From: an uncultured bacterium
GTDB taxonomy: Bacteria > Electryoneota > AABM5-125-24 > Hatepunaeales > Hatepunaeaceae
DNA: 22,257 bases
Assembly: GCA_964471745.1 (NCBI GenBank)
Contig: CAYYHI010000034.1
Coordinates: 1 to 22,257 of the forward strand
Direction of reading: 5' to 3'
Below the pieces are notes generated by a model. The model saw nothing but the letters and a program-made list of their open reading frames with translations, was not told where the DNA came from and made no database searches. Of the stretch, positions 1-17,857 are shown piece after piece. Numbering within the stretch: position 1 is the first letter of the stretch; every line of letters begins with the position of its first letter. Both the position numbers and the translations under genes were made by a program.

Positions 1-157
1 CCCTGTCAATATAGATCCATACATCTTTAGCATCGGCATCCCAAGAGTTTGATATTGCTTCACCTAAAACAGTCATGAAGCTTCTGTACAGATTCCTCCC
101 AAGGTGATTTAAAACGCTGAGAGAGATGGCAAATGTAAATTTTTCATTGTTAGACAT
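1..157 (-). CDS. Hypothetical protein, 5' portion only; the gene runs off the left edge. The visible N-terminus is MSNNEKFTFAISLSVLNHLGRNLYRSFMTVLGEAISNSWDADAKDVWIYIDR. It may be a restriction-endonuclease partner of the upstream C5-methyltransferase.
   Basis: An open frame on the minus strand starts at ATG 157..155. That ATG overlaps the last codons and stop of the upstream methyltransferase gene (ATGTCTAA overlap), which implies translational coupling. It is absent from the ORF track because no stop lies in the window. No recognisable motif is present in the 52 visible residues. Confidence 0.4.
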   Translation of the reverse strand, partial: MSNNEKFTFAISLSVLNHLGRNLYRSFMTVLGEAISNSWDADAKDVWIYIDR

Positions 158-1244
158 TGTATTCCCTCACATGATTTTTTATACTTCTTGCAATTACTTT
201 TCCAAGTTTGACTGGAACTGCATTTCCAATTAACTTTCCTATTCGTTCAGTGGATATCTGTTTGCCCGATTCTATAAAGTCGTATTCAATTGGAAACGTC
301 TGTAAAAGTGCTCCTTCTCTCAAGGAAATAGCTCGATCCTGTTCAGGATGTCCGAAACGACCATTTCCAAAACCAAAGAATTGAGTGGTGATCGTGGGTG
401 CAGGTTTATCCCACTCCATACGACCATAAACGCTTACGTAAGTCCTGCAGGTAGGTTTCTTGTGGCAATCGGCTATGAGATCCTCCGACCATTGTCTCCA
501 AGTCCCTCCGGGTTTGGACTGCCGAATTCGTCGTAAGTTTTTATCAGAAAGGTTTCGCGATCTATGCAACGGATCAATACTTGATATTTCTCCTGCAGAT
601 AATGGTTCTAAATCCTTTATCCAGTCACGAACCGTCGTATATTCGGTGGGTTTATGAGTGGGTTCTATTAAATCTAATGAGCCGAAAAGGGATGCGAAGA
701 GAACTAATCTTCTACGCGTTTGAGGTATTCCATATTCTCGACAATCAACGATAAAAGTCGTTACGTGATAACCTTCTTTAATTAGTCCTTCAATGAAATC
801 TTCATACACCTGGTGTTTGGTTAGAAGAGACACGTTCTCCATACTGACAATTTCAGGTTTAAGCTCACTAATTATACGAGAGAACGAATATAAAAGCCCC
901 CATTTAGCATCGTTTCTGTTTTCGTATCCTTGTGTATAAGCTGAAAACGGCTGGCATGGAGCACAACCTACTAAAATTTTCAGGTCGTTTTTGGTATAGA
1001 GACCTGCGATATCATCTCCAGATAATTCGGAAACATCTTTAAGCAGAAACTCGCATTTGTTGTTTTGTTCATAAGAATAACGACAATCGGGATCTATATC
1101 TATACCGGCATTAACTGCGATTCCCTCTTGTTGAAATCCGTATGTTAGACCACCGACTCCACAAAATAGGTCAACTGCAGAGGCATTTACAACGAATGGT
1201 CGATCCGAGTAATTATTACTCATAGTTAACAACATCTTATTCAA
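150..1244 (-). CDS. dcm: DNA (cytosine-5)-methyltransferase (Dcm-like C5-MTase)
   Basis: C5-MTase motifs are present: I DLFCGVGG, IV GCAPCQPFS (catalytic PCQ), VI ENV, VIII QTRRR, X GNAVPV. Its length (~360 aa) is typical. The ORF-track start at 1244 is a TTG. The first ATG is at 1235, 1 nt after the vsr stop. Confidence 0.9.
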   Translation of the reverse strand: MNKMLLTMSNNYSDRPFVVNASAVDLFCGVGGLTYGFQQEGIAVNAGIDIDPDCRYSYEQNNKCEFLLKDVSELSGDDIAGLYTKNDLKILVGCAPCQPFSAYTQGYENRNDAKWGLLYSFSRIISELKPEIVSMENVSLLTKHQVYEDFIEGLIKEGYHVTTFIVDCREYGIPQTRRRLVLFASLFGSLDLIEPTHKPTEYTTVRDWIKDLEPLSAGEISSIDPLHRSRNLSDKNLRRIRQSKPGGTWRQWSEDLIADCHKKPTCRTYVSVYGRMEWDKPAPTITTQFFGFGNGRFGHPEQDRAISLREGALLQTFPIEYDFIESGKQISTERIGKLIGNAVPVKLGKVIARSIKNHVREYNV

Positions 1245-1650
1245 CTGTCAAGCTCTTAAGTTTCTTGAGCTTTTCATTTACCAACCCTTTTTTAATCTCA
1301 CATTCCCATATCCTTATCACTTGCCAGCCTTTAGATATTAATACAGTGTCAACTTTACAGTCCCGCTCCTTATTACGCTTAATTTTCTTTTCCCAGAACT
1401 CGTGATTTGTTGCAGGCTTCGTGTTCCGACAATCATGACCATGCCAAAAACAACCGTCAGCGAATACCGCTATCTTGGCTCTTAGAAAAACAAAATCTGG
1501 ACTACCTGGTGCAGAATAGTTACGTCGCCACCCCTTTATTCTGTGTTCCCTGAACAAATCGATAAGTTTCATTTCTGTTGATTTATTTCGCTTCCCTCGA
1601 TTTGCTCTCATAATCTGTGAGCGTTTTTCCTGTGAAAAGGAGTCTGTCAT
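1237..1650 (-). CDS. vsr: Very-short-patch repair endonuclease Vsr
   Basis: Carries the Vsr signature FADGCFWHGHDC, in a ~137 aa protein with a basic N-terminus. It is tightly linked or overlapping with the C5-MTase gene, the classical dcm/vsr association. Here vsr sits upstream. Confidence 0.88.
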   Translation of the reverse strand: MTDSFSQEKRSQIMRANRGKRNKSTEMKLIDLFREHRIKGWRRNYSAPGSPDFVFLRAKIAVFADGCFWHGHDCRNTKPATNHEFWEKKIKRNKERDCKVDTVLISKGWQVIRIWECEIKKGLVNEKLKKLKSLTVE

Positions 1651-2368: not shown

Positions 2369-3895
2369 TTATTCAAAACCGAGCTCACCGACCGTGTCTT
2401 CAGTTACTTTTACAATAGAGCCATCCCGAACCATAGCCACTATCTTTTCGATATCGGGATAGAGAACCCGGTCATTCTCCAGGAAGGCAACCTGCTCCCG
2501 GATCTTATGATAGGCGATGCGTGTTCCTTTGCCTGGTTGGAGTGGCTTGCGGTAGTCAAACGCCTGAGCGGCTGACATCATCTCTATCGCCAGTACCGCG
2601 CCGACATTGCGCAGGATTTCACCGCACTTGCGCACTGCGATCGGCGTCATAGCCACGTGATCCTCCTGATCGGCGGAAACACTGATAGAATCGACGCACG
2701 CCGGATGAGACAGCACCTTGTTCTCGCTGACCAGCGCCGCCGCAGTGTACTGCGCTACCATAAGTCCCGAATTGAGACCATTACCCTCTACGAGGAAATC
2801 AGGCAGCCCGGATAGATTCTTATTCAGAAGACGGTTGGTATGCCGTTCGGACAGGTTGGCGATTTCGGACATCGCCATTGCCAGGAAGTCCATCCCCAGC
2901 GCGATGTTCTGACTGTGGAAGTTGCCGCCCGCCAGGTAAGCTTCGCCCTCCGTAAAGAACAGCGGATTATCCGCCGATGAGTTCATCTCCGTTTCAACCT
3001 GCTTGCGTACGTACAGCCATGCATCGACCGTCGGACCGTAAACCTGCGGTGTGCAGCGCATCGAATAGCCGTCCTGGACCTTGCCTGAACCGTCGGCGAT
3101 GACTTCGCTGTCAGCCATCAACATCCGCAGATGTTTCGCCACCAGGTTCTGGCCGTGGAACGGGCGCGCTGCGTGCAACCGGGCGTCGTAAGCCGATTGG
3201 ACTCCCTTCAGTGCGTCGATGGTCATAGCTGACGCAATGAACGCGTTTTTAATCAGATTGCGGGCGTCGACCAACTCCAGCGCTGCGCCACCGACGCACA
3301 TCTGACTGCCGTTGATCAGCCCCAAACCTTCCTTGTAGCCGAGGTCGATGATCTTGATGCCGGCTTGCTCCATCGCCTGACCGCCCGGCATCCGCTCGCC
3401 CTTATAGTAAGCTTCGCCTTCGCCTAAGCATACTAAAGCCAACTGCGACATCGGGGACAGATCGCCGGAAACGCCCAAAGAGCCTTTTTCGCAAACTACC
3501 GATGTAACGCCCTTGTTCAGCATATCCACTAAAACCTGCGGAATCTGCAGCCTGACGCCGGAATTGCCGCGGCAAAGCGTGTTCGCGCGCAACAACATCG
3601 CTGCTCGCACATTCTCCTCAGGAAACGGATCACCAGTACCGGCGGCGTGGCTGTAAATAATACGCCGCTGTAGTTCGGAACTCATTTCAGGTGACACGCG
3701 CAAACGTGCCAGTTCGCCAATGCCGGTAGTCACACCATAAATGGCTGTACCCTTGTCAACTAACTTTTGAATCAGCGCAGCAGAAGCGTTGATCCGTTCG
3801 ATTGCTTCCGGTGCGAGTTCAACTTCGGCGCCGTTTCGAGCAACCTGAGCAACCTGGTCTATATTAAGGTTGTTTCCGTTTATTTGTATTTTCAT
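2369..3895 (-). CDS. hutH: Histidine ammonia-lyase (MIO-dependent aromatic amino acid lyase family)
   Basis: Matches HAL across its 508 aa. It has the SGDL active-site region (GSLGVSGDL) and the conserved FHSQNIALGMDFLAMAMSE..SERHTNRLLN..LSGLPDFL block. The ATG is at 3895 and is preceded by an AGGAG RBS. Confidence 0.88.
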   Translation of the reverse strand: MKIQINGNNLNIDQVAQVARNGAEVELAPEAIERINASAALIQKLVDKGTAIYGVTTGIGELARLRVSPEMSSELQRRIIYSHAAGTGDPFPEENVRAAMLLRANTLCRGNSGVRLQIPQVLVDMLNKGVTSVVCEKGSLGVSGDLSPMSQLALVCLGEGEAYYKGERMPGGQAMEQAGIKIIDLGYKEGLGLINGSQMCVGGAALELVDARNLIKNAFIASAMTIDALKGVQSAYDARLHAARPFHGQNLVAKHLRMLMADSEVIADGSGKVQDGYSMRCTPQVYGPTVDAWLYVRKQVETEMNSSADNPLFFTEGEAYLAGGNFHSQNIALGMDFLAMAMSEIANLSERHTNRLLNKNLSGLPDFLVEGNGLNSGLMVAQYTAAALVSENKVLSHPACVDSISVSADQEDHVAMTPIAVRKCGEILRNVGAVLAIEMMSAAQAFDYRKPLQPGKGTRIAYHKIREQVAFLENDRVLYPDIEKIVAMVRDGSIVKVTEDTVGELGFE

Positions 3896-4020
3896 GTTTT
3901 ATGTACTCCTGAGATGCAGTATAGTATAATTTTTATTAGGTTCCCGCCAGATTACGACCGTAACAATACTTTGAAATCCACAAGCCAGGAATCCATCGGT
4001 CTTGAAATCTGGCGGTAACT
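3896..4020 (-). promoter_or_regulatory. hutH 5' leader/promoter region (copy U1). It has a conserved structured element (outer stem CCGCCAGATT...AATCTGGCGG, inner GACCG/CGGTC) and an AGGAG RBS.
   Basis: Inverted repeats lie immediately upstream of the hutH ATG. The whole segment recurs, ~85% identical, at 7467-7600. Confidence 0.4.
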
Positions 4021-4041
4021 AAATAATTGTCTTCCTTTCAT

Positions 4042-4136: not shown

Positions 4137-5726
4137 TTAGTCAAATATCTTCTCTTGGTTATCTGATTTATTTACGAATTTGGGAGCTCCCAATAGTCCT
4201 CCTCCAGGAGGAATCTTAAAGCAATCCGGATCACTTAGCAGTTGCGGGATTGTTAAAATCTGCATCCGAGGATAATCCCGGTTCATAACCTCCGAATGAT
4301 AAAATCCGGCTGAGGACGCTTCCGAAATCATCCCCGCAGTTGGCGGTTCGAGAGTTATGAATGCGCTCATTTCAGCCTTTTCCCTCTCCATTACGCCCTT
4401 GAGGTCGCGTATCTGGGATGGGTTCACGGTCCCGGATTTCACTTGAATGATGCATTTGGCGTACGTTCGCCGAGGACCGTGTATAAAACTCCTGTAGCCA
4501 TCGATACCCCGGTCAGCGCCCTTTTTCTTTTCACCCCACGGTCGAGCGTTGATTAACCCCAATGCCCAATATTGGAACTGGTATCGGTTCTCCCTTGCCA
4601 AAGCTCTCGCCTCTTCCACGGTTGTCGGTTCACCGATTACATCGTAGGACTGGCGATCCATACCGAACCTGGAGTATAGCCGGAATTTAATCAGGTCGAT
4701 CGCCAAGTGAGTTACATCGATCCCGATCCATTGACGCGGTGGAAGCTCCGGATTCTCTTTATTAAGAGTCTCAACTGCATCGATTGTTGTGCCGCAGCCG
4801 CAGAAGGGATCGAGGATTATATCACCTGATTTGGATGCCGAATTAACTACCCTGTGTAAGAGCTCCAACGGTTTTTGTGTTTGGTAACCGAGTCTTTCCT
4901 TAGCCTGTGAATTAATAAAATCGATCTCCCAAACGTCGGGCGCAGTAGTTAATCGGGTTTCTGCTTCGACGATCCTTGCATAATCTTTGAGATTTATCCT
5001 TCCCCGCGCTACGGCTTCTTCAACCTTCCCTTTATCATAGATGATTAACTGTGGCTTTCTCACGCCATCAATTGGTACTGTATTTCGATCCCAGCCTCTT
5101 TCGTGCTTCTTAATTTGTCCGGATGTTGGTTTAATATAAGTCCTGTTGATTTGATGTTGCATATCCTTCGCATAAAACAGGATATTATCATGCATCCTTT
5201 GGAAGTGCTTCGATTTTGCAGTCCACCGCCTGTAATACCATATTATATCATTTCGGAATAGCTTCGGTCCAAATATCGCATCCAAGACAAGCTTGAGGTA
5301 ATGACTGGCGGTCGGATCGCAATGCAGATATAACGAACCGGTCGGCTTCAATATCCGGTGCAATTCAACCAGTCTGACAGCCATCTGGACTAAATACGCA
5401 TACATGGGCGAATGACAGAGGAAGCTCTCCAGCATATTTAACAGAGCAACCAACGGCTGTGGTGTATAGTCAATTACGCTGTTTATCTCATATAAAGCCT
5501 TCGCGGCGTTCTCATCCCACCTCCATGTATCCTCAAACGCCTTGATCTGAGCCGATGAGGGTGTTCCTTCCTCGTCCTTAAACAGAACGTTGTAGCTCTG
5601 ATTGGAGTTAAATGGCGGATCAAGGTAGATCAGGTCGACCGATTCCGATGGAAAGAAATCCCTGTCTCTGAGGAATTTGAGGTTATCACCGAAATATAAA
5701 CGATTGGTGGGGATCATACAACACAT
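4137..5726 (-). CDS. Beta-class DNA amino-methyltransferase (N6-A/N4-C; DPPF...FCGCG) fused to a C-terminal Mrr-type PD-(D/E)XK restriction-endonuclease-like domain (paralog A)
   Basis: Motif IV DLIYLDPPF comes before motif I ILDPFCGCGTT, the beta permutation. PTGSLYLHCDP is also present. The C-terminus has YWALGLINARPWG..RGIDGY..CIIQVKSG..IRDLKGVM..AFITLEPPT, matching the Mrr catalytic-domain hallmarks (GIDG, QxK, FxTt). The likely real start is the conserved MIPTNRLYF at 5717. Confidence 0.8.
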   Translation of the reverse strand: MCCMIPTNRLYFGDNLKFLRDRDFFPSESVDLIYLDPPFNSNQSYNVLFKDEEGTPSSAQIKAFEDTWRWDENAAKALYEINSVIDYTPQPLVALLNMLESFLCHSPMYAYLVQMAVRLVELHRILKPTGSLYLHCDPTASHYLKLVLDAIFGPKLFRNDIIWYYRRWTAKSKHFQRMHDNILFYAKDMQHQINRTYIKPTSGQIKKHERGWDRNTVPIDGVRKPQLIIYDKGKVEEAVARGRINLKDYARIVEAETRLTTAPDVWEIDFINSQAKERLGYQTQKPLELLHRVVNSASKSGDIILDPFCGCGTTIDAVETLNKENPELPPRQWIGIDVTHLAIDLIKFRLYSRFGMDRQSYDVIGEPTTVEEARALARENRYQFQYWALGLINARPWGEKKKGADRGIDGYRSFIHGPRRTYAKCIIQVKSGTVNPSQIRDLKGVMEREKAEMSAFITLEPPTAGMISEASSAGFYHSEVMNRDYPRMQILTIPQLLSDPDCFKIPPGGGLLGAPKFVNKSDNQEKIFD

Positions 5727-5744
5727 CCAATTGGACTCAGCATT

Positions 5745-5815
5745 TCAAACCTTTAGCGCCGTACTGAGCAACCTGGTCTATATTAAGATTGTTATCGTTT
5801 ATTTGTGTTTTCAAT
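5745..5815 (-). repeat. Degenerate copy of the hutH 5' coding end (the ATG has decayed to ATTG). It forms a short uORF-like leader directly upstream of MTase-nuclease A.
   Basis: The reverse complement reads (L)KTQINDNNLNIDQVAQ..., versus hutH MKIQINGNNLNIDQVAQVA. The conserved junction CCAATTGGACT(C/T)AGCATTTCAAACCTT(T/C)AGCGCCGT precedes both MTase genes. Confidence 0.7.
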
Positions 5816-5841
5816 GAATATCTCCAGAGAAACTAATTATT

Positions 5842-7380
5842 TCAATCAAACATCTTATTTTGAGAATCATCCCGCTTCTTAAATTTTGGTGCCGAGGCTA
5901 ATTGTCCACCTGGAGGAATCTTAAAAATATCCGGATCCTTAAATAATTCTTTGATTGTTAGTATCTGCAAACGCGGATAATCCTTGTTCATCACCTCGGA
6001 ATGATAAAACCCAGTTGCAGCAGACTCCGTTATCATCTCTTTAGTTGGCTTCTCAAGAGTAATGAAAACACCAAGTTTTGCATTTACTCTTTCCATAGTC
6101 CCTTTTAAATCCCTTATCATACTGGGATTAACTTTACCAGATTTTACCTGAACTATACATTTTTCGTATTTTCGCTTGGCACCGTGTAGGAAGTATCTAT
6201 ATCCATCTATTCCTCTATCGGGTTTTCCCCACGGACGTGCCCCAATTAAACCGAGAGCCCAATATTCGAATTGTTTACGATTCTCAAGCGCCAAGGCTTT
6301 AGCTTCCTCTAAGGTAGTTGGTTCCCCTATAACATCATAATAGTTTCTATCGATACCGAATCGTGTCATAAGACGGTTCTTCATAAGATCAATCGCCAGA
6401 TGTGTGATGTCGATGCCGATCCACTTGCGAGGCGGTTTGTCGGGAGTTTCCTGATTTAATGTCTCTACAGCGTCAATTGTCGTTCCGCATCCGCAGAAGG
6501 GATCAAGGATCATATCGCCGGGATTTGAGCCGATAGTTATTATCCTTCTTAGAAGTCGAACAGGTTTTTGGGTATCATAACCCAATGATTCTTTTTCACC
6601 ACTGGTGAGTTTTTCAATATTGAATAAATCATCCAACGGACGCCCGTATGCCATTGCGTCTTCAATATAGCGTTTGATTCTCTTTCCCTTTCCAGCATCG
6701 GAAAGAACGTATTCCCTTCCATCTTTATCTACATGGATTTTTTGCTTCCTAACTTTTATATATTCCTCCTTTGATTCCCATTCGGCTGTCGGGTAGTTAA
6801 AGGTAAATCTCAATTTCTTTCTATATAGAAATATAGTATCATGTCGGGATTCAATCCTGGATTTCAGCTTTTTATTCCATCCTGAATAATGCCAAACTAT
6901 ATCATTTCTGAAATTCTTCGGTCCGAAAATGCCATCTAATAATAATTTTAAATAGTGACTCGCCGTCGGATCGCAGTGCAGGAATAGCGAGCCAGTAGGC
7001 TTCAGAATCCTATGCATCTCGACCAATCTCACCCCCATCTGCACCAGGTAAGCATACATCGGTGAATGTTTCAGGAATTCTTCCAGCATATTGATCAAAG
7101 CGACAAGCGGTTGGGGAGTGTAGTCAATAACCGTATTCATTTCATGCAGCGCTTTTGCAGCAGATTCATCCCAGCGCCACGTGTCCTCGAAAGCCTTAAC
7201 CTGTGCCGTTGAGGGCGTCCCCTCAGCTTCTTTGTACAGAACGTTATAGCTCTGATTGGAATTGAACGGCGGATCAAGGTAGATCAGGTCGACCGATTCC
7301 GATGGGAAGAAATCCCTGTCCCTGAGGAATTTAAGGTTGTCACCGAAATATAGGCGGTTGGTGGGGATCATATACAACAT
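5842..7380 (-). CDS. Beta-class DNA amino-methyltransferase fused to a C-terminal Mrr-type nuclease domain (paralog B; the central target-recognition region differs from A)
   Basis: Has the same motifs as paralog A (DLIYLDPPF, ILDPFCGCGTT, DRGIDGY, CIVQVKSG, VFITLEKPT). The N-terminal ~160 aa and the C-terminal nuclease domain are highly similar to A. The region between motif IV and motif I is strongly diverged. Confidence 0.8.
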   Translation of the reverse strand: MLYMIPTNRLYFGDNLKFLRDRDFFPSESVDLIYLDPPFNSNQSYNVLYKEAEGTPSTAQVKAFEDTWRWDESAAKALHEMNTVIDYTPQPLVALINMLEEFLKHSPMYAYLVQMGVRLVEMHRILKPTGSLFLHCDPTASHYLKLLLDGIFGPKNFRNDIVWHYSGWNKKLKSRIESRHDTIFLYRKKLRFTFNYPTAEWESKEEYIKVRKQKIHVDKDGREYVLSDAGKGKRIKRYIEDAMAYGRPLDDLFNIEKLTSGEKESLGYDTQKPVRLLRRIITIGSNPGDMILDPFCGCGTTIDAVETLNQETPDKPPRKWIGIDITHLAIDLMKNRLMTRFGIDRNYYDVIGEPTTLEEAKALALENRKQFEYWALGLIGARPWGKPDRGIDGYRYFLHGAKRKYEKCIVQVKSGKVNPSMIRDLKGTMERVNAKLGVFITLEKPTKEMITESAATGFYHSEVMNKDYPRLQILTIKELFKDPDIFKIPPGGQLASAPKFKKRDDSQNKMFD

Positions 7381-7399
7381 CCAATTGGACTTAGCATTT

Positions 7400-7600
7400 C
7401 AAACCTTCAGCGCCGTGCAGGCAACTTGGTCTATGTTAAGGTTGTTTCCGTTTATTTGTGTTTTCATGTTTTATATACTTCTTAGATGCAGTATAACATA
7501 TTTTTTATTAGGTTCCCGCCAGATTACGACCGCGCTAATACTTTGAAATCCACAAGCCAGAAATCCATCGGTCTTGAAATCTGGCGGGAACTAAAAATGT
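7400..7600 (-). repeat. Second copy of the hutH 5' coding end (7400-7466; intact uORF MKTQINGNNLNIDQVACTALKV*) plus the hutH leader/promoter (U2, 7467-7600), upstream of MTase-nuclease B.
   Basis: Direct comparison with 3815-4020 gives ~85-90% identity. The uORF stops 19 nt before the MTase B ATG. Confidence 0.75.
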
Positions 7601-7610
7601 ACAGGACCTC

Positions 7611-7690
7611 ATCATTCCATCGAAAGATGGAATCCAGTAACGTACGTAATATCAGCAACTTCTCTGGATTCCAACTTCCGTTGGAATGAT
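7611..7690. terminator. Paired related hairpins (ATTCCATC-GAAA-GATGGAAT and ATTCCAAC-TTCC-GTTGGAAT) with an alternative central pairing (GGAATCCAG...CTGGATTCC). This is the likely terminator region after the aminotransferase-fusion gene.
   Basis: Inverted repeats read from the sequence. The region lies between the fusion-gene stop (7747) and U2. Confidence 0.4.
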
Positions 7691-7746
7691 GAATCCCGAG
7701 ACGATTAGGTATTTTCGGACACACTGTTTCGCGGGAATGACAGTGG

Positions 7747-10086
7747 TTACTTATTTATTATCTCCCAGATCCTTTCCTTCGCTTCAGCGAGCTCCATACT
7801 CTCGGTGTTGACGATATAAAGCGGAACAGCATCCAGCAGTCTATTCCACTGGCGGCGCAGCAGATCCATGCGCGCGGCGTCGCTAACCAGGAGATACGGA
7901 TTGTAGAACGGAACCGAGAACCACCGTCCGTGCGACATCGAATAACCGCCCTCTTCGATTATGCGCAGCGCGGCGTCAGTTGACGGTTTGTCTACCTTCG
8001 GCGCCATGGTGTCCCTCTTCAGCAGGATTATGGAGCTTAGCAGCGTCCGCTTGATATGCCTGGCTGAACCGCCGATCCAGTATGGGTCGAGTATGGCGAA
8101 TGAATTGCGCGATCCCTCATAGCAGCAGGCTGCGCCCTGTTCGAGTGGGCATTCGCTGCTGACCAGATGCTTTTCTGCCTGGCAATCGTCCGACTTCGTG
8201 ACGACGTTCTCCAGCTTGGATCGGTCGAATAAGGGCATCAACTCCGGAAGCTTTCCTGCCAGGTTGGTATGTATCAGGAACTTACGCTCAACCGAATCGG
8301 CGATCGGCGAACCTCCAGCCTGACGGACGAAGAACCCGTCGTAGCTGTGCAATCGGGCTTCCTGACGGCGCATCAGACCGGCGAAATGAGTCGAACCACC
8401 TGTCCCCGGCGGCGCAATCAGGGCAACGCCCCGACCGTTGACATCAAAGCACGAGCCGACAACAAGGTGCATGTCGAACGTGCGCGAGGCGATGTCATCG
8501 ACAATACCCAACGTCATGGCACGCAACTGCGGATAGAAGGCGGTGTTGAACGTCAAACCGGTACGTGTCTGAGAGTTATAGAAAACGCGCGCTTCCCGTC
8601 CCGGCGCATCCTTGACACCGTACAGCAAACCGTGAGGTTCGAGATCCGACTCGATTGGCGATGGATACCAGTTCTCCGTCCAGAAGTCGATGAGATGCGG
8701 TGAGTTCGTCATCATCTTCACTACAACACCGCCGATGTTGGCGCACCATTCGTGATAGCGGTCGTATGTCATTGCTGCTTCAGCCTCAGAAACGAGCGCG
8801 TCGCGCATCTCTATTTCGATAGCTGTTTCCAGTTCGGAATAATCCTTGATCTTGGTCACTGTGTTGTTTAACGCCCGCCGCTTGGCTTTGGTAGTCGGTT
8901 TCAGCCATGCCAGCGCCTCGGTTACCCTGTCCAGCGCAATAGCCAGATTCTCCTGCGATGTCGCATACGAGAAGCGGATGAAATTGTCCGCACCGAACGC
9001 ATCACCGGGTACGAGCGCTACGTGGGCGTGCTTCAGAAGGTAGTATGCCAGTCCGCTGGAATTGCGTATCGGTACGCCTTCGAACTGCTTGTCGTAGTAC
9101 CACGAGAAATTCGGGAAGGCATAGAACGCGCCCTCAGGCTTGTTGCAGGATACGTGCGGCATGCCGTTCAGCTTATAGATCACGAAGTTACGCCGTGCTT
9201 CGAACTCCTGGCGCATCCGAACGATTTCGTGCTGCGGTCCGGTCAGCGCTTCCACGCCCGCCCACTGCGCGACCGAATTGGGATTGGAGGTGGCGTGCGA
9301 CTGTACCTTGGACATGCCCTGAATCAGTTCCAGAGGTCCCACTGCATAGCCGAGTCGCCAGCCGGTCATCGCGTAGGATTTCGAGAAGCCGCAGACAATG
9401 ATCGACTTGCTTCTGACCTTCTCGCCAAATGCAGCGACCGATTTCATCTCGAATCCGTCGTAAACGAGCTTTTCGTAAATCTCATCGGCGATGATAAACA
9501 AGCCTTCATCCATACAGACGTCGATAAGCTTCAGCAACTGATCCGGGTTATAGGCAGCGCCGGTGGGGTTGCACGGGTTGTTGAGGATAATGGCTTTGGT
9601 TCGGGCAGATAAGGCACGTCCCAGGTCTTCGGTTGTCAGCCGGAAACCGTTTTCCTCGCGTGTATTGACGTAGATCGGCACTCCCTTGGCGAGGTTCACC
9701 ATGTGCGGATATGACACCCAGTATGGCACCGGCACAATGACCTCGTCGCCCTTGTTCAGCAACGCGGTGCAGGCGTTGAACAGGCACTGCTTGCCACCCG
9801 TAGAGACGATCACCTCGCCCGGTTTGTAATCTGCACTGCATTCATCGCTGTACTTGCGGGCGATGGCTTCGCGCAGCTCCAGAATGCCGGTGTTGTCGGT
9901 GTATTTCGTATAGTTCTTGTCGAGAGCCGCTTTCGCCGCGTTCTTAATGTTCTCCGGCGTGGGAAAATCAGGCTCACCGACGGAAAGGTTTATGACATCG
10001 ATCCCTTCGCGCCGCATCTGCTGCGCCTTGGAGCTGATGCGCAAGGTCGACGAAAAGCCTATGCGTTGTACTCGGTCTGATAACAT
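7747..10086 (-). CDS. Fusion protein: N-terminal aspartate/aromatic aminotransferase (PLP fold type I), joined to a C-terminal ~380-aa extension containing an HprK-C/PEPCK-like domain with a degenerate P-loop.
   Basis: AspAT hallmarks are present in the first ~400 aa: SVGEPDF, NNPCNPTG, the PLP-lysine block FSKSYAMTGWRLGY, and RFSYA. The C-terminal part has GRGVALIAPPGTGGSTHFAGLMRRQEARLHSYDGFFV. This resembles the HPr-kinase C-domain G-x-GVLI-G-SG-GKSE..L...G..LV-DD but lacks the Walker-A Lys. It is one uninterrupted 779-codon frame. Confidence 0.7.
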   Translation of the reverse strand: MLSDRVQRIGFSSTLRISSKAQQMRREGIDVINLSVGEPDFPTPENIKNAAKAALDKNYTKYTDNTGILELREAIARKYSDECSADYKPGEVIVSTGGKQCLFNACTALLNKGDEVIVPVPYWVSYPHMVNLAKGVPIYVNTREENGFRLTTEDLGRALSARTKAIILNNPCNPTGAAYNPDQLLKLIDVCMDEGLFIIADEIYEKLVYDGFEMKSVAAFGEKVRSKSIIVCGFSKSYAMTGWRLGYAVGPLELIQGMSKVQSHATSNPNSVAQWAGVEALTGPQHEIVRMRQEFEARRNFVIYKLNGMPHVSCNKPEGAFYAFPNFSWYYDKQFEGVPIRNSSGLAYYLLKHAHVALVPGDAFGADNFIRFSYATSQENLAIALDRVTEALAWLKPTTKAKRRALNNTVTKIKDYSELETAIEIEMRDALVSEAEAAMTYDRYHEWCANIGGVVVKMMTNSPHLIDFWTENWYPSPIESDLEPHGLLYGVKDAPGREARVFYNSQTRTGLTFNTAFYPQLRAMTLGIVDDIASRTFDMHLVVGSCFDVNGRGVALIAPPGTGGSTHFAGLMRRQEARLHSYDGFFVRQAGGSPIADSVERKFLIHTNLAGKLPELMPLFDRSKLENVVTKSDDCQAEKHLVSSECPLEQGAACCYEGSRNSFAILDPYWIGGSARHIKRTLLSSIILLKRDTMAPKVDKPSTDAALRIIEEGGYSMSHGRWFSVPFYNPYLLVSDAARMDLLRRQWNRLLDAVPLYIVNTESMELAEAKERIWEIINK

Positions 10087-10352: not shown

Positions 10353-10733
10353 TCAATCCATCCAATATTCGGTGACTATCTTATCCAACTTTTCGCGCAG
10401 TAAGGGAACATCATCGGTAATGGTTGTCCAGACCCGGTTCAAATCAATCCTGTAGTAGGCATGTATCAGGCGGTTGCGCATCCCGATGATGTCCTCCCAT
10501 GGAATGTCGGAGAATTCACGCCGGACTTCGGGCGAGACCTTGGAAGCTGCCTCACCGATCAACTCAATGGCTTTCACAACCCCAAGCTCCAACAGGCGAT
10601 CTTTATCCAAATCCCGGCGCGTCTTGCTTTGAGTGAACTGTTCCACATCCCTCGCGGCATCCAGCATGTGCCGCAGCCGGATGAAGTCATCCTTGTGCAT
10701 ACTGCACCTGCGCCGATGAAATAACATCATCAC
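10353..10733 (-). CDS. hepT: HepT-family HEPN toxin (DUF86) of a MntA/HepT type VII toxin-antitoxin pair
   Basis: Carries the R-x4-HxY motif (MRNRLIHAY). The likely start is the internal Met at 10700, which gives a 14-nt overlap with mntA. Confidence 0.8.
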
Positions 10734-10986
10734 GGAAATATGGACTTAGGTCGTCCGGTGTCCGAAGGTCAACCTTGCGCCCAAGTATCGCCGACAGTTC
10801 CCGCTCCATTGCCGCCATCCGGAGAAGTCCCACTACCGCTTCGGGTTCAAACTCCACCAGCACGTCAATATCGGAGTCCGGGTGGAATTCCTCCCGAAGC
10901 ACCGACCCGAAGAGTGCCAGTCGTCGGATGCGATGCTTGACGCAGAAGGACTTGATCGCGCGTTTGTCTATGTTGAGCTTGCCCAT
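10687..10986 (-). CDS. mntA: MntA-family minimal nucleotidyltransferase antitoxin
   Basis: Contains [24 protein letters not shown] (GS..R...x..SDxD). It is ~99 aa and sits immediately upstream of hepT. Confidence 0.8.
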
Positions 10987-11003
10987 TTTACTTTATGTTT
11001 GTA

Positions 11004-11130
11004 TCACAACTTCTCGCGCGACGCCGAGTCTAAGAGCGCCAGGCGTTTGACCTTGAGCTCTTTTAACTTGTCGTGGTTTTTGGTTAGAAGTTGTAAAATA
11101 TCTTCACGAGTCAAAACATTTCTCCCTAAA
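11004..11130 (-). pseudogene. Second MntA-like N-terminal remnant (...LTREDILQLLTKNHDKLKELKVKRLALLDSASREKL*)
   Basis: Shares an exact 34-nt stretch (GCCAGGCGTTTGACCTTGAGCTCTTTTAACTTGT, encoding KLKELKVKRLAL) with the fragment at 10184-10345. The GS motif is lost and a stop follows. Its start is unclear. Confidence 0.4.
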
Positions 11131-11132
11131 AG

Positions 11133-11714
11133 TTAATAGACAATATCTTCAAAATTTATTCCATCTCCTCTAAATTTTTCAATTATTTTGTCATAGGAAA
11201 ATTTCAGGCTTCCAGGCCATAACAAAGGAGCATTTACACTCCCTATTGGTCCCCAGCTCCAACCTCCAGAAGTAAACCCCCCTTGTAAGTAAAGAAATTC
11301 GTGAATTAGATCTCCATCAAAAACGTTATCTTTATCGTTAAAGGATTTCTTAAAACTATCAGCGTCCTCTAGACTTAAATCTACATAAAGGGTTCTAAGA
11401 GATAACATAATCGGTGTCCATCCAGGCCTGGAGTCGCCCCAGACATCCTCTATGCGATAGAGGGAAACGTTCCTTTCCACTTTAGGTTTTAAGTCAACAA
11501 TTAGAGCACTATTTTCTACTGATTGTCCAAGTATCAATAAAATATTTTGCTCGGATAAGTGCCATTTTATACCAGAATCTTTAGGTGCTAGTCCCAAACT
11601 TTGAACATAAGTTGCTATAGGACCTTTTCTGCCAGCAAGTGAGACTTTTTTCAAATAGCTGTAGGTTGATAATTCGCCAGCTTTTTGTTTAACATTGTAA
11701 ATTATGAAAGGCAT
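11133..11714 (-). CDS. Hypothetical protein (193 aa), in an AT-rich segment
   Basis: A long ORF on the same strand as the toxin-antitoxin array, with a plausible SD (AGGAGGTAAAC) upstream of the ATG. There are no recognisable motifs. GC is markedly lower than in flanking genes. Confidence 0.5.
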   Translation of the reverse strand: MPFIIYNVKQKAGELSTYSYLKKVSLAGRKGPIATYVQSLGLAPKDSGIKWHLSEQNILLILGQSVENSALIVDLKPKVERNVSLYRIEDVWGDSRPGWTPIMLSLRTLYVDLSLEDADSFKKSFNDKDNVFDGDLIHEFLYLQGGFTSGGWSWGPIGSVNAPLLWPGSLKFSYDKIIEKFRGDGINFEDIVY

Positions 11715-11764
11715 GTTTACCTCCTCTTAATTGGCATTTGGTAAATTATGCGTTTATTTATAGT

Positions 11765-11826
11765 ACCCTCACCCCATTCTTGACCACCCATCCCGCGAAG
11801 CTGGCGGGGCTGGGGTTGTGGGGGGC
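11765..11826. repeat. Imperfect-palindromic C/G-rich REP-like element (copy 1)
   Basis: ACCCTCACCCCATTCTTGACCACCCATCCCGCGAAGCTGGCGGGGCTGGGGTTGTGGGGGG. It is closely related to 12432-12486. Confidence 0.6.
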
Positions 11827-11875
11827 TCATAGAAGGGTACAGTGCCACGCCCTCATTCCTTAACCCAACTATTCC

Positions 11876-12100
11876 TCATGCAGTAGCTATTCTTTCCAAC
11901 GTAACTTCCTCAAACGCCTGAATAATCAGTTGGCGTATGTCGGTTTTTTCAGATGCGTCAAGAATTTCGATTGCAACCACATTACCATCATGGTCATAAT
12001 CGACGATCATGTCCTGGTTGATTTCGTCTGAGTTGCCGATCTCGGTCTCCCTCAAACGAATATACAGCGCATCCGCTTCTTTCGAATAACGAATTCTCAT
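11876..12100 (-). CDS. DUF2283-family protein (putative antitoxin partner of DUF4258)
   Basis: YSKEADALYIRL signature (YDxEaDaLYI). 74 aa. Lies 2 nt downstream of the DUF4258 gene. Confidence 0.65.
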   Translation of the reverse strand: MRIRYSKEADALYIRLRETEIGNSDEINQDMIVDYDHDGNVVAIEILDASEKTDIRQLIIQAFEEVTLERIATA

Positions 12101-12102
12101 TT

Positions 12103-12348
12103 TTATTTTCCTTTCAAGTACTTCCAGATCCTATTAGTGGGATAGACAGTGATCAGTTTCTTATTTTCTGTGACTAAGCGTATCAATTTATTACCAATCA
12201 GTTTCTGGTAAATGAGGCGGTTCCTTTTACCGATTACAATATCATCGGGATTCACAAGAACATCATGAATTAACTCACGTGGTATCTTTCTCTCTTTCAA
12301 TTGTTGAACAATATGATCCGTCCAAATCCATTCTTTCAGCTTTTTCAT
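12103..12348 (-). CDS. DUF4258-family protein (putative toxin)
   Basis: TDHIVQQLKERKIPRELIHDVL and ...KLITVY match the DUF4258 pattern. 81 aa. Confidence 0.6.
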   Translation of the reverse strand: MKKLKEWIWTDHIVQQLKERKIPRELIHDVLVNPDDIVIGKRNRLIYQKLIGNKLIRLVTENKKLITVYPTNRIWKYLKGK

Positions 12349-12424
12349 TTAAGATCCAACGAAAATTGCCTGAAGAAGCCAATTTATATGAAATTAGACA
12401 GATACGGAGCCCCGTCCTCCTGTT

Positions 12425-12748
12425 TTAAGCAACCCTCACCCCATTCCTCACCACCCATCCGGCAAAACATGCGGGGCTGGGATTGGGCAGTTCAGCAGCG
12501 TCAAAGAAGTGGAGGTCAATGTCGTCGCCCTCTGCTTCCTTAACCCGGCAGCTTGTTTTCACCTGTTTCATCAGCGTCCATTTACTGAAGTTATCTACAA
12601 AAAGAGCGATGTCCAGATCGCTGTATTCGTCTGAACTACCATCCACTTGCGACCCGAAAATATAAACGGCATTGATATTGGTCTTGCTGCCAAGTAGTTT
12701 AATTACTTGGTTTACCCGCAATGTCAGTAAAGATTTGTCAACAACCAT
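12425..12748 (-). CDS. Minimal nucleotidyltransferase (MNT) of a HEPN/MNT pair
   Basis: YIFGSQVDGSSDEYSDLDIALFV. The 3' end of the ORF runs into REP-like repeat copy 2. Confidence 0.75.
   Translation of the reverse strand: MVVDKSLLTLRVNQVIKLLGSKTNINAVYIFGSQVDGSSDEYSDLDIALFVDNFSKWTLMKQVKTSCRVKEAEGDDIDLHFFDAAELPNPSPACFAGWVVRNGVRVA
12432..12486. repeat. REP-like palindromic element (copy 2)
   Basis: ACCCTCACCCCATTCCTCACCACCCATCCGGCAAAACATGCGGGGCTGGGATTGG. It is preceded by TACGGAGCCCCGTCCTCCTG, which also occurs at 4103-4122. Confidence 0.6.
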
Positions 12749-12832
12749 CCGTATAACTCCTTGGTTGCTTTCAAGTATTTTTCAGTGGTTTGTCTGGTCA
12801 GCTTCAAATCAATCTGAAGCGGATACCTGGTT

Positions 12833-13114
12833 CTAACATAGATAATCGGATAGTTCCCGCAGGAGGGAGACCTGAGTAGCTTCCAAGTCAAGCCCAGCTT
12901 TCTCGATTAATGTCACGAGATTGTGAATACGTGGCGCAAGCTCCCCACTATCCTTTATAATTAAGGCTTTAATGAGTTTCTCCAGTGCCTGTTGACAGCA
13001 GAACAAGACATAGAGGTAGCGTCTTGCAACTTGCATAGCTTCTGCAGTCTTCAAGTCATATTCGGCTTTCTCAAGCCATCGTTTGACTTCCTTACTGTCC
13101 AATCCTGCCTGCAT
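12833..13114 (-). CDS. HEPN-domain protein (partner of the downstream MNT)
   Basis: QQALEKLIKALIIK...RIHNLVTL, the HEPN QAvEKalKA / HdL pattern. The start is chosen at the Met at 13114, 2 nt after the stop of the upstream OMP-like gene. Confidence 0.75.
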   Translation of the reverse strand: MQAGLDSKEVKRWLEKAEYDLKTAEAMQVARRYLYVLFCCQQALEKLIKALIIKDSGELAPRIHNLVTLIEKAGLDLEATQVSLLRELSDYLC

Positions 13115-13116
13115 TC

Positions 13117-13722
13117 TTAAAACCTCACACCAACGATGAGTGGCACCGTGATGGGCATCGTGGCTGACCCGAAAGGCGAAACACGCCAATTAATCTCCGC
13201 GAAAAACGCCAGATTGTCGCTGATTTCCAGATCGGCGCCGAAACCCATTCCAAATGAGGCACCATTCGGTACGCCAATCCCACAAAAGAACTTAAATACG
13301 GGCATGAAGGGTGTCCTTCGAAGTCCACCGTAGTCGCTGAAGCGCAAGGTGACATCGAGCCCTGCTTCATGATAGTAAACGTCAGGCTCAGATTTGTAAC
13401 CGACCATGCACGGCACAACATAAGGAGGGCAGGGATTAGCTTCACGGTTGTTTAGTCTGTATCCATCGGGCACAATGACCAGACGAGGCTCCACTGCCAG
13501 AGCTAAGGTATTCTTTATTACACTACCAAAACCAGCCGAGAACAGGTAACCTTTGGTTGCATAATCATCGTCACCATCACGGGAATGTGGATAAACAACC
13601 ACACCGCTGTTTACCATCCGGAATGACTGGGCTTCCGTAAGTTCAGGGATCGTGGATAATAGACATACCAGTAGCAATAACTTGAGCGATTGAAACAATC
13701 GAAATCTCATATTGCGAGACAT
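13117..13722 (-). CDS. Putative small outer-membrane beta-barrel protein (signal peptide, alternating amphipathic strands, C-terminal ...VRF)
   Basis: N-terminal signal (LKLLLLVCLLSTIPELTEA). Ends in an aromatic residue (F), as typical for OMPs. No specific family was recognised. Confidence 0.4.
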   Translation of the reverse strand: MSRNMRFRLFQSLKLLLLVCLLSTIPELTEAQSFRMVNSGVVVYPHSRDGDDDYATKGYLFSAGFGSVIKNTLALAVEPRLVIVPDGYRLNNREANPCPPYVVPCMVGYKSEPDVYYHEAGLDVTLRFSDYGGLRRTPFMPVFKFFCGIGVPNGASFGMGFGADLEISDNLAFFAEINWRVSPFGSATMPITVPLIVGVRF

Positions 13723-13729
13723 CAGAAAG

Positions 13730-13942
13730 TTATTTCACTGAATCCCACTCAGTTTCTGAAATTCCAGCTACTTTTAGGATTCGCTTAAGTAAACCTATAG
13801 AAATATCCTTGCTGTGCGGATTTGTGATGCTGATATAGAGTTCGCCTCTTCTCATATGAGGATGCTTTCCACCTGGTCTTGGTCCTTCAAATCCCAAAGC
13901 CCTTAAACGTCTTATCAGTTCCCGTCTCGAAACAGGCTTCAC
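13730..13942 (-). CDS. hicA: HicA mRNA-interferase toxin
   Basis: RELIRRLRALGF...GGKHPHM...NPHSKDISIGLLKRILKVAGI matches HicA (YcfA-like). 70 aa. Confidence 0.8.
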   Translation of the reverse strand: MKPVSRRELIRRLRALGFEGPRPGGKHPHMRRGELYISITNPHSKDISIGLLKRILKVAGISETEWDSVK

Positions 13943-14202
13943 TTAAAATCAGCAACAGTTTTGGGATTTTCTGCAACCGTTATACCATCGATTTCAGGCA
14001 CGGGAACATTGTCACGAATGTGAGCCCATATCCAGTCTTCGATGACTTCTGCGAGCGTACCCCGACACTCTTCCAAAGTCCTTCCCTCCGACCACACACC
14101 TTTGAGCCCCGGGACTGAACCAAAATAAAGGTCATCCTCGTCGATAAACTCATAATGTGCTTTACGCAGTGCGGCTTGAATATATTCTATGATCATCAGC
14201 AA
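13939..14202 (-). CDS. hicB: HicB antitoxin
   Basis: YFGSVPGLKGVWSEGRTLEEC (UPF0150/HicB N-domain pattern). 4-nt overlap with hicA. Confidence 0.72.
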   Translation of the reverse strand: MLMIIEYIQAALRKAHYEFIDEDDLYFGSVPGLKGVWSEGRTLEECRGTLAEVIEDWIWAHIRDNVPVPEIDGITVAENPKTVADFK

Positions 14203-15991: not shown

Positions 15992-17857
15992 ATGAGCAGT
16001 ATATATGATGAAGCGGCATACCGTCAGTTCGCCCAGAACCTGCCGCATGCACTATCAGGTAAGAATATCAAGCATATAAAGCTTGATAAGTTACGTAAAC
16101 CGTCAATAGAGACCGGCACGCCAACCAAGTTTGGTTCCTGGGGATGGCGGTCGGCAGTTTCGAGTCGCATAGGTCCCAAGACTGTTTACCTTGGATCTGA
16201 ACCAGTGCTTCTCCCAAAACCAACTGACTTGCATAAGAGCATTATCGCCGTCGCTCCGGACGAGTTGCACAAGGTTCTTCAGCTTTGCCGCACGCTGCCG
16301 ATGGTGCATATACGCCGCCGCATGGGGGAGAATAGCGAATACAATCCGATCTGTAATCTGTACATATCCGTCGCTGATCATAAGAACTACCGCCTGGCTT
16401 ACATGTGGGGGAGCACGATGGGCGATCCGGATAAAGGCTTGCCCGGACCGGAGTTCACCATGATACACATTCCGGAAGAACACGTCCTGCGCCAGCAGGT
16501 GCTTCACCTTCCCGAATACCATATCAACATCGCCCTTGGTACGGATTATATGGGTGAGAATAAAAAGGGCTTTCTTCGTCAGTCGATGTGGTACGCGGAC
16601 GAACACGGCATGCTCGGGCTTCATGCCGGTACGAAGATGGTGACGGTTCGAGATACCAATGACAGCAAACTGAAGAAGTACGGCGTGCTTCTCTTCGGAT
16701 TGTCAGCCACCGGTAAATCCACCTGGTCATGCCACCAACTCGGCTTGAACGAAAAAGATGGCGAGAAAACCGAAACCATTCAGGATGATATTGTATTTCT
16801 TAAGAGTGACGGCTCGGCGCTCGGTTCGGAACAGAACTTCTTCGTTAAGACCGATGTCGACGCCAAACTCCAGGAAGCGATGTTCTGGTCGCTGACCGAT
16901 AAAACGGCGCTGTACGAAAACGTGATGATCGACTCCGACGGTAATCCGGATTTCCTGGATGAGAGCCTCTGTGCCAACGGACGTGCCGTCATTCGCAAAG
17001 ATAAATTGCGCGTAAGGCGCGGCAGGAAGCTGGTCAGAATAGATTACGACGGTCTGAACCTGCCGACTCTTGATAAGCTGGACGGTTTATGCTTTGCGTT
17101 CATAACCCGGCGCAACACAATGATGACTTTCGCGCAGGAGTTAACCCCTGAGCAGGCAGTTCTTGCCTATCTATGGGGGGAATCATCGCACAGCTTTGCC
17201 TCGGAGCCGGCAAAGGCGGGTGAGTCGGTAAGGACAGTCGGCACCGATCCCTTTATCGTCGGTTCACGGGCGCGCAAGGTCAACCGTTTCCGCGATATCA
17301 TCATGGGATTGTGTGAACGCTACCCGGGCAAGGTTCGATTTTTCCAGTACAACACCGGCGGCATCGGTGAGATCATTGAAATTAAGGAAACACCTGAAGG
17401 CAGGAAGAAAAACATGGTGCGTAAGGTCAAACGGGTGCCTATCCCACTGATGGCGGCTATCCAAAAGGGTGACCTGCGTATGACGAACAGATACGAGAAG
17501 GGCAGACTGGGAACGAAGGAGATCGTAGCGGTGGAGGGGTCAGATCTTAGTGAATATGACCCGAAAAAGTACTATGACGAGGCACAGATAAACTCCTATA
17601 TCGAAGAGATCGTTGACGGCAGGCGGAAATTTACTGAGATGATCAGTTCGGAAGGGCTTGACCGCGAGATCATCAAGTGGGCTGAGAAGTCTTATGAGAT
17701 ATCGAGAGCGGCTGAGAAAGAAGTCTGGCAGGTTGGAGTTCCGAAAGAACCGGAGAAAGCTGAGAAGCTCGATCTTATGATGCCTGTCGGGGTTGGCAGC
17801 AACGACGGGGAATCGATCTACCGACCGCCGCGTTCGCTCGGCTGGAGGATTAAGTAG
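15992..17857 (+). CDS. ATP-dependent phosphoenolpyruvate carboxykinase-like protein (atypical, 621 aa)
   Basis: Blocks match the PckA family. GTDYMGENKKGFL ~ GGTWYGGEMKKGMFS. Kinase-1a LLFGLSATGKST ~ FFGLSGTGKTT. IQDDIVFLKSDG ~ IGDDEHGWDDDG. NGRAVI ~ NTRVSYP. The N- and C-terminal regions are divergent or extended. Confidence 0.7.
   Translation: MSSIYDEAAYRQFAQNLPHALSGKNIKHIKLDKLRKPSIETGTPTKFGSWGWRSAVSSRIGPKTVYLGSEPVLLPKPTDLHKSIIAVAPDELHKVLQLCRTLPMVHIRRRMGENSEYNPICNLYISVADHKNYRLAYMWGSTMGDPDKGLPGPEFTMIHIPEEHVLRQQVLHLPEYHINIALGTDYMGENKKGFLRQSMWYADEHGMLGLHAGTKMVTVRDTNDSKLKKYGVLLFGLSATGKSTWSCHQLGLNEKDGEKTETIQDDIVFLKSDGSALGSEQNFFVKTDVDAKLQEAMFWSLTDKTALYENVMIDSDGNPDFLDESLCANGRAVIRKDKLRVRRGRKLVRIDYDGLNLPTLDKLDGLCFAFITRRNTMMTFAQELTPEQAVLAYLWGESSHSFASEPAKAGESVRTVGTDPFIVGSRARKVNRFRDIIMGLCERYPGKVRFFQYNTGGIGEIIEIKETPEGRKKNMVRKVKRVPIPLMAAIQKGDLRMTNRYEKGRLGTKEIVAVEGSDLSEYDPKKYYDEAQINSYIEEIVDGRRKFTEMISSEGLDREIIKWAEKSYEISRAAEKEVWQVGVPKEPEKAEKLDLMMPVGVGSNDGESIYRPPRSLGWRIK

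Follow-up and report, generated by a model that had tools for sequence, protein, structure and literature searches.

Genes A and B at the hutH locus

The analysed stretch, hereafter the window, comprises 22,257 nucleotides (nt) of contig CAYYHI010000034.1 from an uncultured bacterium of the Electryoneota. It contains two adjacent genes on the minus strand, A (4137-5726) and B (5842-7380), which lie between hutH and an aminotransferase gene and which each encode a DNA methyltransferase joined to a C-terminal domain of the Mrr nuclease family (Table 1). A first-pass annotation, made from the letters of the DNA, had described tandem genes of this kind, and translation showed two intact minus-strand open reading frames (ORFs) with all the motifs it quoted at the expected places. 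The maximal ORFs of 529 aa (A) and 512 aa (B) agree with its size estimate of more than 510 aa each. However, homologues begin with MIPTN at the fourth codon, as does P0001, the 509-aa database protein identical to B, so the likely proteins have 526 aa and 509 aa. One database protein, P0270, is at least 90% identical to B, and the closest named relatives in the protein search come from metagenome-assembled genomes of Calditrichota, Electryoneaceae and Bacteroidota. The ORFs between the aminotransferase gene and hutH include no candidate besides A and B, and the Type IIS layout of two methyltransferases (M1/M2) with a separate restriction endonuclease (REase) is not found there.

Table 1. Positions of genes, domains, motifs and repeats in the window
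Feature	Position	Strand	Remarks
Gene A	4137..5717	-	526-aa methyltransferase-Mrr fusion; likely start ATG 5717, ORF extendable to ATG 5726
A, beta-class N6/N4 methyltransferase domain	4689..5639	-	PF01555, E 3.9e-39, aa 30-346
A, methyltransferase motif IV DPPF	5610-5621	-	translation
A, methyltransferase motif I FCGCG	4791-4805	-	translation
A, variable target-recognition segment	4902..5234	-	A-type
A, Mrr-type PD-(D/E)XK domain	4230..4592	-	Mrr_cat 30.7 bits
A, nuclease motif I F-Q	4572-4577	-	
A, nuclease motif II DRGID	4500-4514	-	
A, nuclease motif III QVK	4437-4445	-	
Gene B	5842..7371	-	509-aa methyltransferase-Mrr fusion; likely start ATG 7371, ORF extendable to 7380
B, beta-class N6/N4 methyltransferase domain	6382..7293	-	PF01555, E 5.2e-41
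B, methyltransferase motif IV DPPF	7264-7275	-	translation
B, methyltransferase motif I FCGCG	6484-6498	-	translation
B, variable target-recognition segment	6595..6888	-	B-type
B, Mrr-type PD-(D/E)XK domain	5935..6285	-	Mrr_cat 27.3 bits
B, nuclease motif I F-E	6265-6270	-	
B, nuclease motif II DRGID	6205-6219	-	
B, nuclease motif III QVK	6142-6150	-	
hutH, histidine ammonia-lyase-type	2369-3895	-	flanks the A/B pair; ATG at 3895
Aminotransferase	7747-10086		779 aa; flanks the A/B pair on the other side
hutH 5' end, real start	3845-3894		repeat family D3
hutH 5' end, copy upstream of A	5764-5813		repeat family D3; between B and A
hutH 5' end, copy upstream of B	7417-7466		repeat family D3
175-nt direct repeat	3849-4023 and 7421-7595		repeat family D2; 91% identity; hutH upstream region and first 47 nt of hutH
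Dcm-type C5 cytosine methyltransferase	150-1244		beyond hutH
Vsr	1237-1650		beyond hutH
HepT	10353-10733		toxin-antitoxin-type cluster
MNT nucleotidyltransferase	10687-10986		toxin-antitoxin-type cluster, with HepT
DUF4258	12103-12348		toxin-antitoxin-type cluster
Nucleotidyltransferase	12425-12748		toxin-antitoxin-type cluster
HEPN	12833-13189		toxin-antitoxin-type cluster, with the preceding nucleotidyltransferase
HicB-like/UPF0150	13939-14202		toxin-antitoxin-type cluster

The N-terminal parts of A and B match the Pfam family N6_N4_Mtase (PF01555) with 135.3 and 141.4 bits, respectively (cut-off 26.7). Motif IV (DPPF, aa 36-39) precedes motif I (FCGCG, aa 308-312 in A and 295-299 in B), and a variable segment of approximately aa 165-265 lies between them. 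The predicted fold of this part fits the beta-class N6/N4 enzymes. Since the matches to NCBIfam models, all below threshold, are to adenine methyltransferase families and the catalytic motif is DPPF, the modification is probably N6-methyladenine, with N4-methylcytosine as the alternative. An alignment of 207 members was built from A, B, 120 database hits and the proteins of 82 loci (80 from genomes and two from plasmids), with identities reaching down to 38%. The DPPF motif is kept in 207/207 members and FxGxG in ~206/207.

The C-terminal parts both exceed the 21-bit cut-off of the Mrr_cat family (PF04471), as do 21 of 21 diverse C-terminal domains of the family. An AlphaFold2 model of B, based on an alignment of 27 sequences, has a mean predicted local distance difference test (pLDDT) score of 81, and for the C-terminal 174 aa modelled separately the pLDDT is 84. 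The modelled domain shows the alpha-beta-beta-alpha-beta core fold of PD-(D/E)XK nucleases, and its nearest structures are the tethered cleavage modules of AspBHI, MspJI, R.BspD6I, FokI and LlaBIII. A search of all Protein Data Bank (PDB) sequences with a profile of the domain gave no match even at E = 10, which leaves the predicted structures and Pfam as the basis of the fold assignment. The hidden Markov model matches and structure prediction by which the first-pass annotation had proposed to check its assignment, a beta-class methyltransferase with a C-terminal Mrr-fold domain, came out in its favour. The same residues also score 25.9 (A) and 27.3 bits (B) on NA-iREase1 (PF22722, NACHT-associated inactive REase; cut-off 27). 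However, neither protein has a NACHT domain, and the D, D and K residues are kept.

The Mrr-family motifs have been dissected by mutagenesis in LlaGI, in which motif I is F-E, motif II is D-x-G-x-D with the first Asp as a family-specific marker, and motif III is Q-x-K; alanine substitution of D74, D78 or K94 abolishes cleavage, whereas E38A and Q92A remain partly active (PMC2790908). Genes A and B both encode DRGIDGY, with the additional Asp of motif II four residues before the catalytic Asp. The first-pass annotation had written this motif as (D/P)RGIDGY; the core stands, but the ambiguity is misplaced, as the residue preceding DRGIDGY is A in gene A and P in gene B. In the alignment (residue numbering of B), D388, equivalent to the essential D74, is kept in 204/205 members, and D392 and K413 (D409 and K430 in A), equivalent to the essential D78 and K94, are each kept in 205/205. 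Position 372, equivalent to E38, is Q in 151 members (73% of the family, including A) and E in 55, with no other residue, and position 411, equivalent to Q92, is Q in 140 and S in 65. Among the LlaGI-equivalent positions, variation is thus confined to the two that tolerate mutation in LlaGI. In addition, D424 in the helix after motif III, at a position comparable to E231 of Mrr, is D in 173 members and E in eight. This residue pattern is as expected of a working Mrr-type active site, short of proving one, and it is hard to explain by DNA binding alone.

Recognition segments and the history of the pair

Comparison of A and B showed an overall identity of 64% that is unevenly distributed. It reaches 88% over the N-terminal 155 aa and 71% over the nuclease domain and remainder, so that the earlier description of these parts as nearly identical was too strong. 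The segment between motifs IV and I is only 28-30% identical. In beta-class enzymes the target-recognition domain sits between the catalytic and the S-adenosylmethionine (AdoMet)-binding halves, and the proposal that the variable segment determines specificity therefore fits its location. The A-type segment is 94% identical to that of P0006 and 76-82% identical to those of P0009, P0011 and P0012, the last being the A-type copy in locus L088. The B-type segment is 68-73% identical to those of P0002, P0003 and P0004 and 27-36% identical to those of A-type and C-type proteins.

Two metagenomic relatives, L087 and L089, keep the order aminotransferase-methyltransferase-hutH with a single methyltransferase gene each. 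The gene of L087 (P0006) is A-type and 90.7% identical to A. That of L089 is 97% identical to A at the N-terminus and 88% at the C-terminus but 52% in the recognition segment, which represents a third type, C. P0006 and P0007, found at the same locus in relatives, differ by replacement of the recognition segment and are otherwise 97% identical. Two nearby copies occur in four other genomes, directly in tandem in L022 and close together in L088, L030 and L042. The recognition segments have diverged in all four pairs (31-49% identity), whereas the constant modules are 86-97% identical in L022 and L088, 94% identical in one module in L042 and 56-71% identical in L030. Since the constant modules are conserved while the recognition segments differ and are shared with proteins of other genomes, the comparisons indicate that recognition segments are exchanged as cassettes within a conserved frame. 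The pattern of specificity diversification noticed in the first-pass annotation thus recurs both in other genomes and as alleles at the same locus, and such exchange argues for diversifying selection of the kind acting on defence genes. Type III mod alleles and Type I specificity genes are known to exchange cassettes in this way. Over the two-copy regions of L088 (3445-7590) and L022 (5038-8257), the N- and C-terminal modules are 93-96% identical and the recognition segments 36-49%. The L088 copies have a HicA toxin gene between them.

Nucleotide comparisons do not fit the view of A and B as simple diverged tandem duplicates. A block of ~245 nt around the start codons, from about -95 to +150 (5560-5813 and 7214-7466), is ~90% identical between the genes, and in the first 45 codons 77% of third positions agree. 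From about codon 60 onwards, the genes share mostly 60-73% of their nucleotides and mostly 23-50% of third positions, the latter figure climbing to ~60% towards the 3' end. Synonymous sites are thus near saturation except in the 5' block, and segments are shared with other genomes, showing that A and B are mosaics. The conserved block suggests either local gene conversion or replacement of the body of one copy by a foreign allele.

The surroundings of the pair point to the start of hutH. The first ~50-63 nt of hutH occur as three direct repeats, at the real start and upstream of each of the two genes, whereas just one hutH 5' end is present in L087 and in L089, whose spacers measure only 31-35 nt. 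Because the triple repeat is found here and the relatives have one copy and one methyltransferase gene, we infer a segmental duplication or repeated insertion at the hutH 5' end, after which a foreign allele would have replaced most of one copy. Insertion with long target duplication has reportedly been described for restriction-modification (R-M) genes in Helicobacter. The ~95-nt leader upstream of both genes was considered as a regulatory RNA and rejected, the leader being a copy of the hutH 5' end; it has no Rfam match above threshold, and its folding z-scores of +0.09 and -0.46 are no better than those of shuffled sequence. Both copies of the hutH-upstream region contain a 14-nt inverted repeat, GTTCCCGCCAGATT ... 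AATCTGGCGGGAAC, with arms 52 nt apart; the pairing is perfect at 7512-7591, and a single position is mismatched at 3940-4019 (four matches observed vs. 0.19 expected by chance). The inverted repeat could serve as an operator or represent a small palindromic element. A long hairpin (7609-7692) lies between the direct repeat and the stop codon of the aminotransferase gene; its 29-nt arms are 90% complementary and enclose a loop of 26 nt. It gave sub-threshold miRNA-like Rfam matches and may be a terminator or a repeat element.

Family distribution, known systems and gene neighbourhood

The architecture, which the first-pass annotation had taken to be unusual, belongs to a very large and generically annotated family. 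The protein search returned at least 8000 clusters of candidates with the methyltransferase-Mrr architecture. Of the best 120 hits, 116 combine PF01555 with an Mrr-clan domain (PF04471 and/or PF22722); almost all are ~500-580 aa long. Their source names are "DNA methyltransferase", "site-specific DNA-methyltransferase" and, occasionally, "restriction endonuclease". When one genome per species was scanned, at least 571 stretches contained a relative, in phyla including Chloroflexota, Planctomycetota, Acidobacteriota, Verrucomicrobiota, Desulfobacterota, Bacteroidota and Aquificota. Cluster representatives at 50% identity that match a profile of this C-terminal domain number 4623, a count in which stand-alone domains are not separable from truncated metagenomic genes; among the 150 of these that were listed, the domain is at or near the C-terminal end in nearly all.

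Full-length homologues are also carried by mobile elements. The plasmids that carry them include Mesorhizobium pMLa and one of Microbacterium, and the plasmid copies are likewise solitary; matches that span at least 80% of the query occur in 28 phage records. The full-length homologues of three unrelated temperate phages lie in the lysogeny or integration region: directly after a CI-like repressor gene in Marinitoga phage MPV1 (2716-4272 of L084), between LysB and the integrase in mycobacteriophage Dori (3489-5126 of L085), and beside a serine integrase in Streptomyces phage Werner (3471-5114 of L086). Such positions are typical of prophage-expressed genes that defend the lysogen. Of the 82 loci, 79 contain just one copy within 8 kb, and none of the neighbouring gene families is conserved across the set. 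The most frequent neighbour, a CoA-transferase-like protein in eight loci mostly titled Dehalococcoidia, probably reflects lineage synteny. PADLOC gave generic methyltransferase models and a weak PDC-S02 match for the C-terminal domain. The nearest relatives without the nuclease domain are ordinary Type III Mod genes, after which comes a DEAD-box helicase gene that is presumably Res. Because of this relationship and the solitary genes of the family, the family looks like a Mod-type methyltransferase with a fused cutter in place of the helicase-nuclease partner.

Structural and sequence comparisons of the methyltransferase part gave Type III Mod proteins as the best matches (EcoP15I Mod, 4zcf; 6k0w; Mbo45V, 7dsu). 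In common with A and B, they have their motifs in beta-class order and, in the centre, a recognition domain that can be swapped. However, no Res helicase-nuclease partner is found in the window or in the 82 related loci; A and B are flanked by the aminotransferase gene and hutH rather than by Res, and their nuclease is fused to the methyltransferase. The Type IIG/IIL enzymes MmeI, BpuSI and Eco57I resemble A and B in combining nuclease, methyltransferase and specificity in one chain. They differ in having an N-terminal PD-ExK nuclease and a gamma-class methyltransferase with NPPY/F/W, whereas A and B have the reversed order, a beta-class methyltransferase with DPPF and the Mrr pattern D-x-G-x-D...QxK, and are thus not classical Type IIG enzymes. 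Classical Type IIG/IIL proteins are also larger (~900-1000 aa vs. ~510 aa). The Type ISP enzymes LlaGI and LlaBIII, of ~1500 aa, have an N-terminal nuclease, a helicase-like ATPase motor and a gamma-class methyltransferase, whereas A and B have no ATPase. The Type IV nucleases Mrr, MspJI and AspBHI share the catalytic-domain family and fold, but there the nuclease is joined to a reader of modified bases and in A and B to an apparently active methyltransferase.

A and B have nuclease and methyltransferase domains in one chain, as Type IIC enzymes do. Most Type IIC enzymes carry an N-terminal PD-(D/E)XK nuclease followed by a gamma-class methyltransferase (PMC4081073), so the reversed order noted in the first-pass annotation is correct. 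A characterised precedent for the order of A and B is BtgZI, an active Type IIC exception in which an alpha-class methyltransferase at the N-terminus precedes a PD-(D/E)XK variant with Q in place of E at the C-terminus (PMC4081073). BtgZI (Type IIC/IIS, GCGATG 10/14) is, by its published description, like A and B a single chain with a methyltransferase followed by a QxK nuclease; it differs in that its methyltransferase is alpha-class, whereas those of A and B are beta-class and Type III Mod-like. Type IIC enzymes possess a single catalytic site and are considered to cleave both strands via transient dimerisation, and some Type IIG/IIL enzymes act without a separate methyltransferase (PMC4081073). 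A search of the full-text literature returned no study of the methyltransferase-Mrr architecture and no tested member. Two Haloferax papers were set aside as irrelevant, as they concern N-terminal Type IIG nuclease fragments, and a Shedu preprint describes a different architecture in which Mrr_cat and N6_N4_Mtase are fused separately to Shedu.

The base composition of the pair differs from that of its surroundings. As the first-pass annotation stated, the GC contents of A (0.465), B (0.421) and hutH (0.55) are distinct. At third codon positions the GC content (GC3) is 0.51 in A and 0.43 in B, below the 0.58-0.70 of the measured metabolic genes nearby, which suggests a horizontal origin of A and B. 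A megablast search of the region against complete E. coli genomes gave no match. The methylation and defence neighbourhood described earlier is also present, with Dcm, Vsr and several toxin-antitoxin pairs. The gene for the Dcm-type C5 methyltransferase shares 8 nt with that for Vsr, and their GC3 values (0.32 and 0.39) are lower than any others in the window. Because they are absent downstream of hutH in L087 and L089, they are probably another strain-specific insertion. Upstream of the aminotransferase gene, a low-GC stretch (10353-14202) holds the toxin-antitoxin-type cluster, in which the ORFs 11133-11714 and 13117-13722 have no Pfam match. The Pfam match of the aminotransferase spans residues 30-388, and none covers its C-terminal 390 aa; the length is kept in L087 (780 aa). 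Farther along, a 621-aa ORF (15992-17857) has a weak partial match to PEPCK_ATP (E 1e-21, residues 104-340) and may encode a divergent PEP carboxykinase-like protein.

Proposed single-chain restriction-modification and its alternatives

The reading we favour, although we judge it no better than evenly balanced, is that A and B would be two self-contained, single-chain R-M enzymes with different specificities, each combining a Mod-like methyltransferase with a nuclease and having no helicase. Each enzyme would consist of a beta-class methyltransferase, probably an N6-adenine one, a swappable recognition segment and a C-terminal Mrr-family cutter, forming a complete Type IIC-like enzyme with the domain order of BtgZI. 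The methyltransferase and recognition module would find a short DNA sequence, host sites would be kept methylated, and at an unmethylated site on incoming DNA the tethered non-specific nuclease would cut nearby. To cut both strands, two nuclease domains would probably have to pair transiently, as those of FokI and other Type IIC enzymes do. The recognition segments of A and B are unrelated and would therefore give the cell two independent specificities. More tentatively, and with somewhat less than even confidence, the whole family, with its thousands of members in bacteria, plasmids and temperate phages, may be an uncharacterised class of minimal R-M enzymes, made of a Mod-like methyltransferase with a swappable segment and its own Mrr cutter and dispensing with both helicase and partner gene, of which the window would hold two with different targets at an insertion hotspot at the hutH start. 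The data show the domain identities, fold, motif conservation, solitary context, segment swapping and foreign base composition, whereas nuclease activity, restriction of unmodified DNA and the place of cleavage are inferred. The solitary single-copy loci speak for self-containment, and the swapped segments, the low GC3 and the location in phage lysogeny regions for a defence-like behaviour.

Several observations weigh against the single-chain R-M reading. The full-text literature yielded no experimentally tested member, public databases call these proteins simply "DNA methyltransferase", and PADLOC recognises them by generic methyltransferase models only. The C-terminal domain scores about equally on a family of inactive REases; the motif I glutamate is replaced by Q in A and most of the family, and the motif III Q by S in a third of the family, albeit not in A or B. 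Further, the nuclease motifs are lost in only 1/205 members. True R-M fusions often show decayed nucleases, and the near absence of loss may instead point to a requirement of the domain for methylation. In the main alternative, the proteins would be orphan methyltransferases, for which CcrM, with its C-terminal DNA-binding domain, provides a comparison of role. The Mrr fold would then be a non-restricting module for DNA binding, clamping or dimerisation, and the function would be epigenetic marking or self-protection of phages. We regard this as unlikely, though it deserves serious weight. It fits genes that are solitary everywhere and annotated as methyltransferases, an NA-iREase1 match as strong as that to Mrr_cat, Q in motif I (151/206) and S in motif III (65/205), and nuclease motifs kept as strictly as DPPF, as expected if the domain is indispensable for the sole activity. 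Phage-borne methyltransferases are usually protective. However, DNA binding alone fails to explain two invariant Asp and an invariant Lys in the catalytic arrangement of Mrr. To our knowledge, orphan regulators also keep one specificity, whereas the recognition segment here is swapped between close strains and paralogues.

The presence of two genes raises the question of whether A and B act together on one asymmetric target, each modifying one strand as Type IIS M1/M2 methyltransferases do or forming a nuclease heterodimer like the BspD6I subunits. Pairs with differing segments do recur, in the window and in L088, L022, L030 and L042. However, we consider joint action improbable: most loci hold a single copy, as do the close relatives at the same locus, and the partners vary, A being found with B here and with C in L088, so that there is no fixed pairing. 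Hardly credible is the modification-dependent (Type IV, Mrr-like) activity also proposed in the first-pass annotation, by which the methyltransferase part would read methylated bases. Although the nearest relatives by fold and Pfam, Mrr and the MspJI family nucleases, are modification-dependent, the methyltransferase motifs are invariant or nearly so across the family and indicate an active AdoMet-dependent enzyme, and an enzyme that writes a mark and then cuts the marked DNA would be suicidal.

If the C-terminal domain is not a restriction nuclease, it has to be explained why a methyltransferase family keeps a near-perfect Mrr signature across many phyla. If the nuclease of the single-chain R-M reading is active, abundant proteins now named "DNA methyltransferase" would be complete one-gene defence systems, and surveys that count them as orphan methyltransferases would undercount R-M systems. 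With their compact size of ~510 aa and modular recognition, they would also be a new source of enzymes that cut away from their recognition site.

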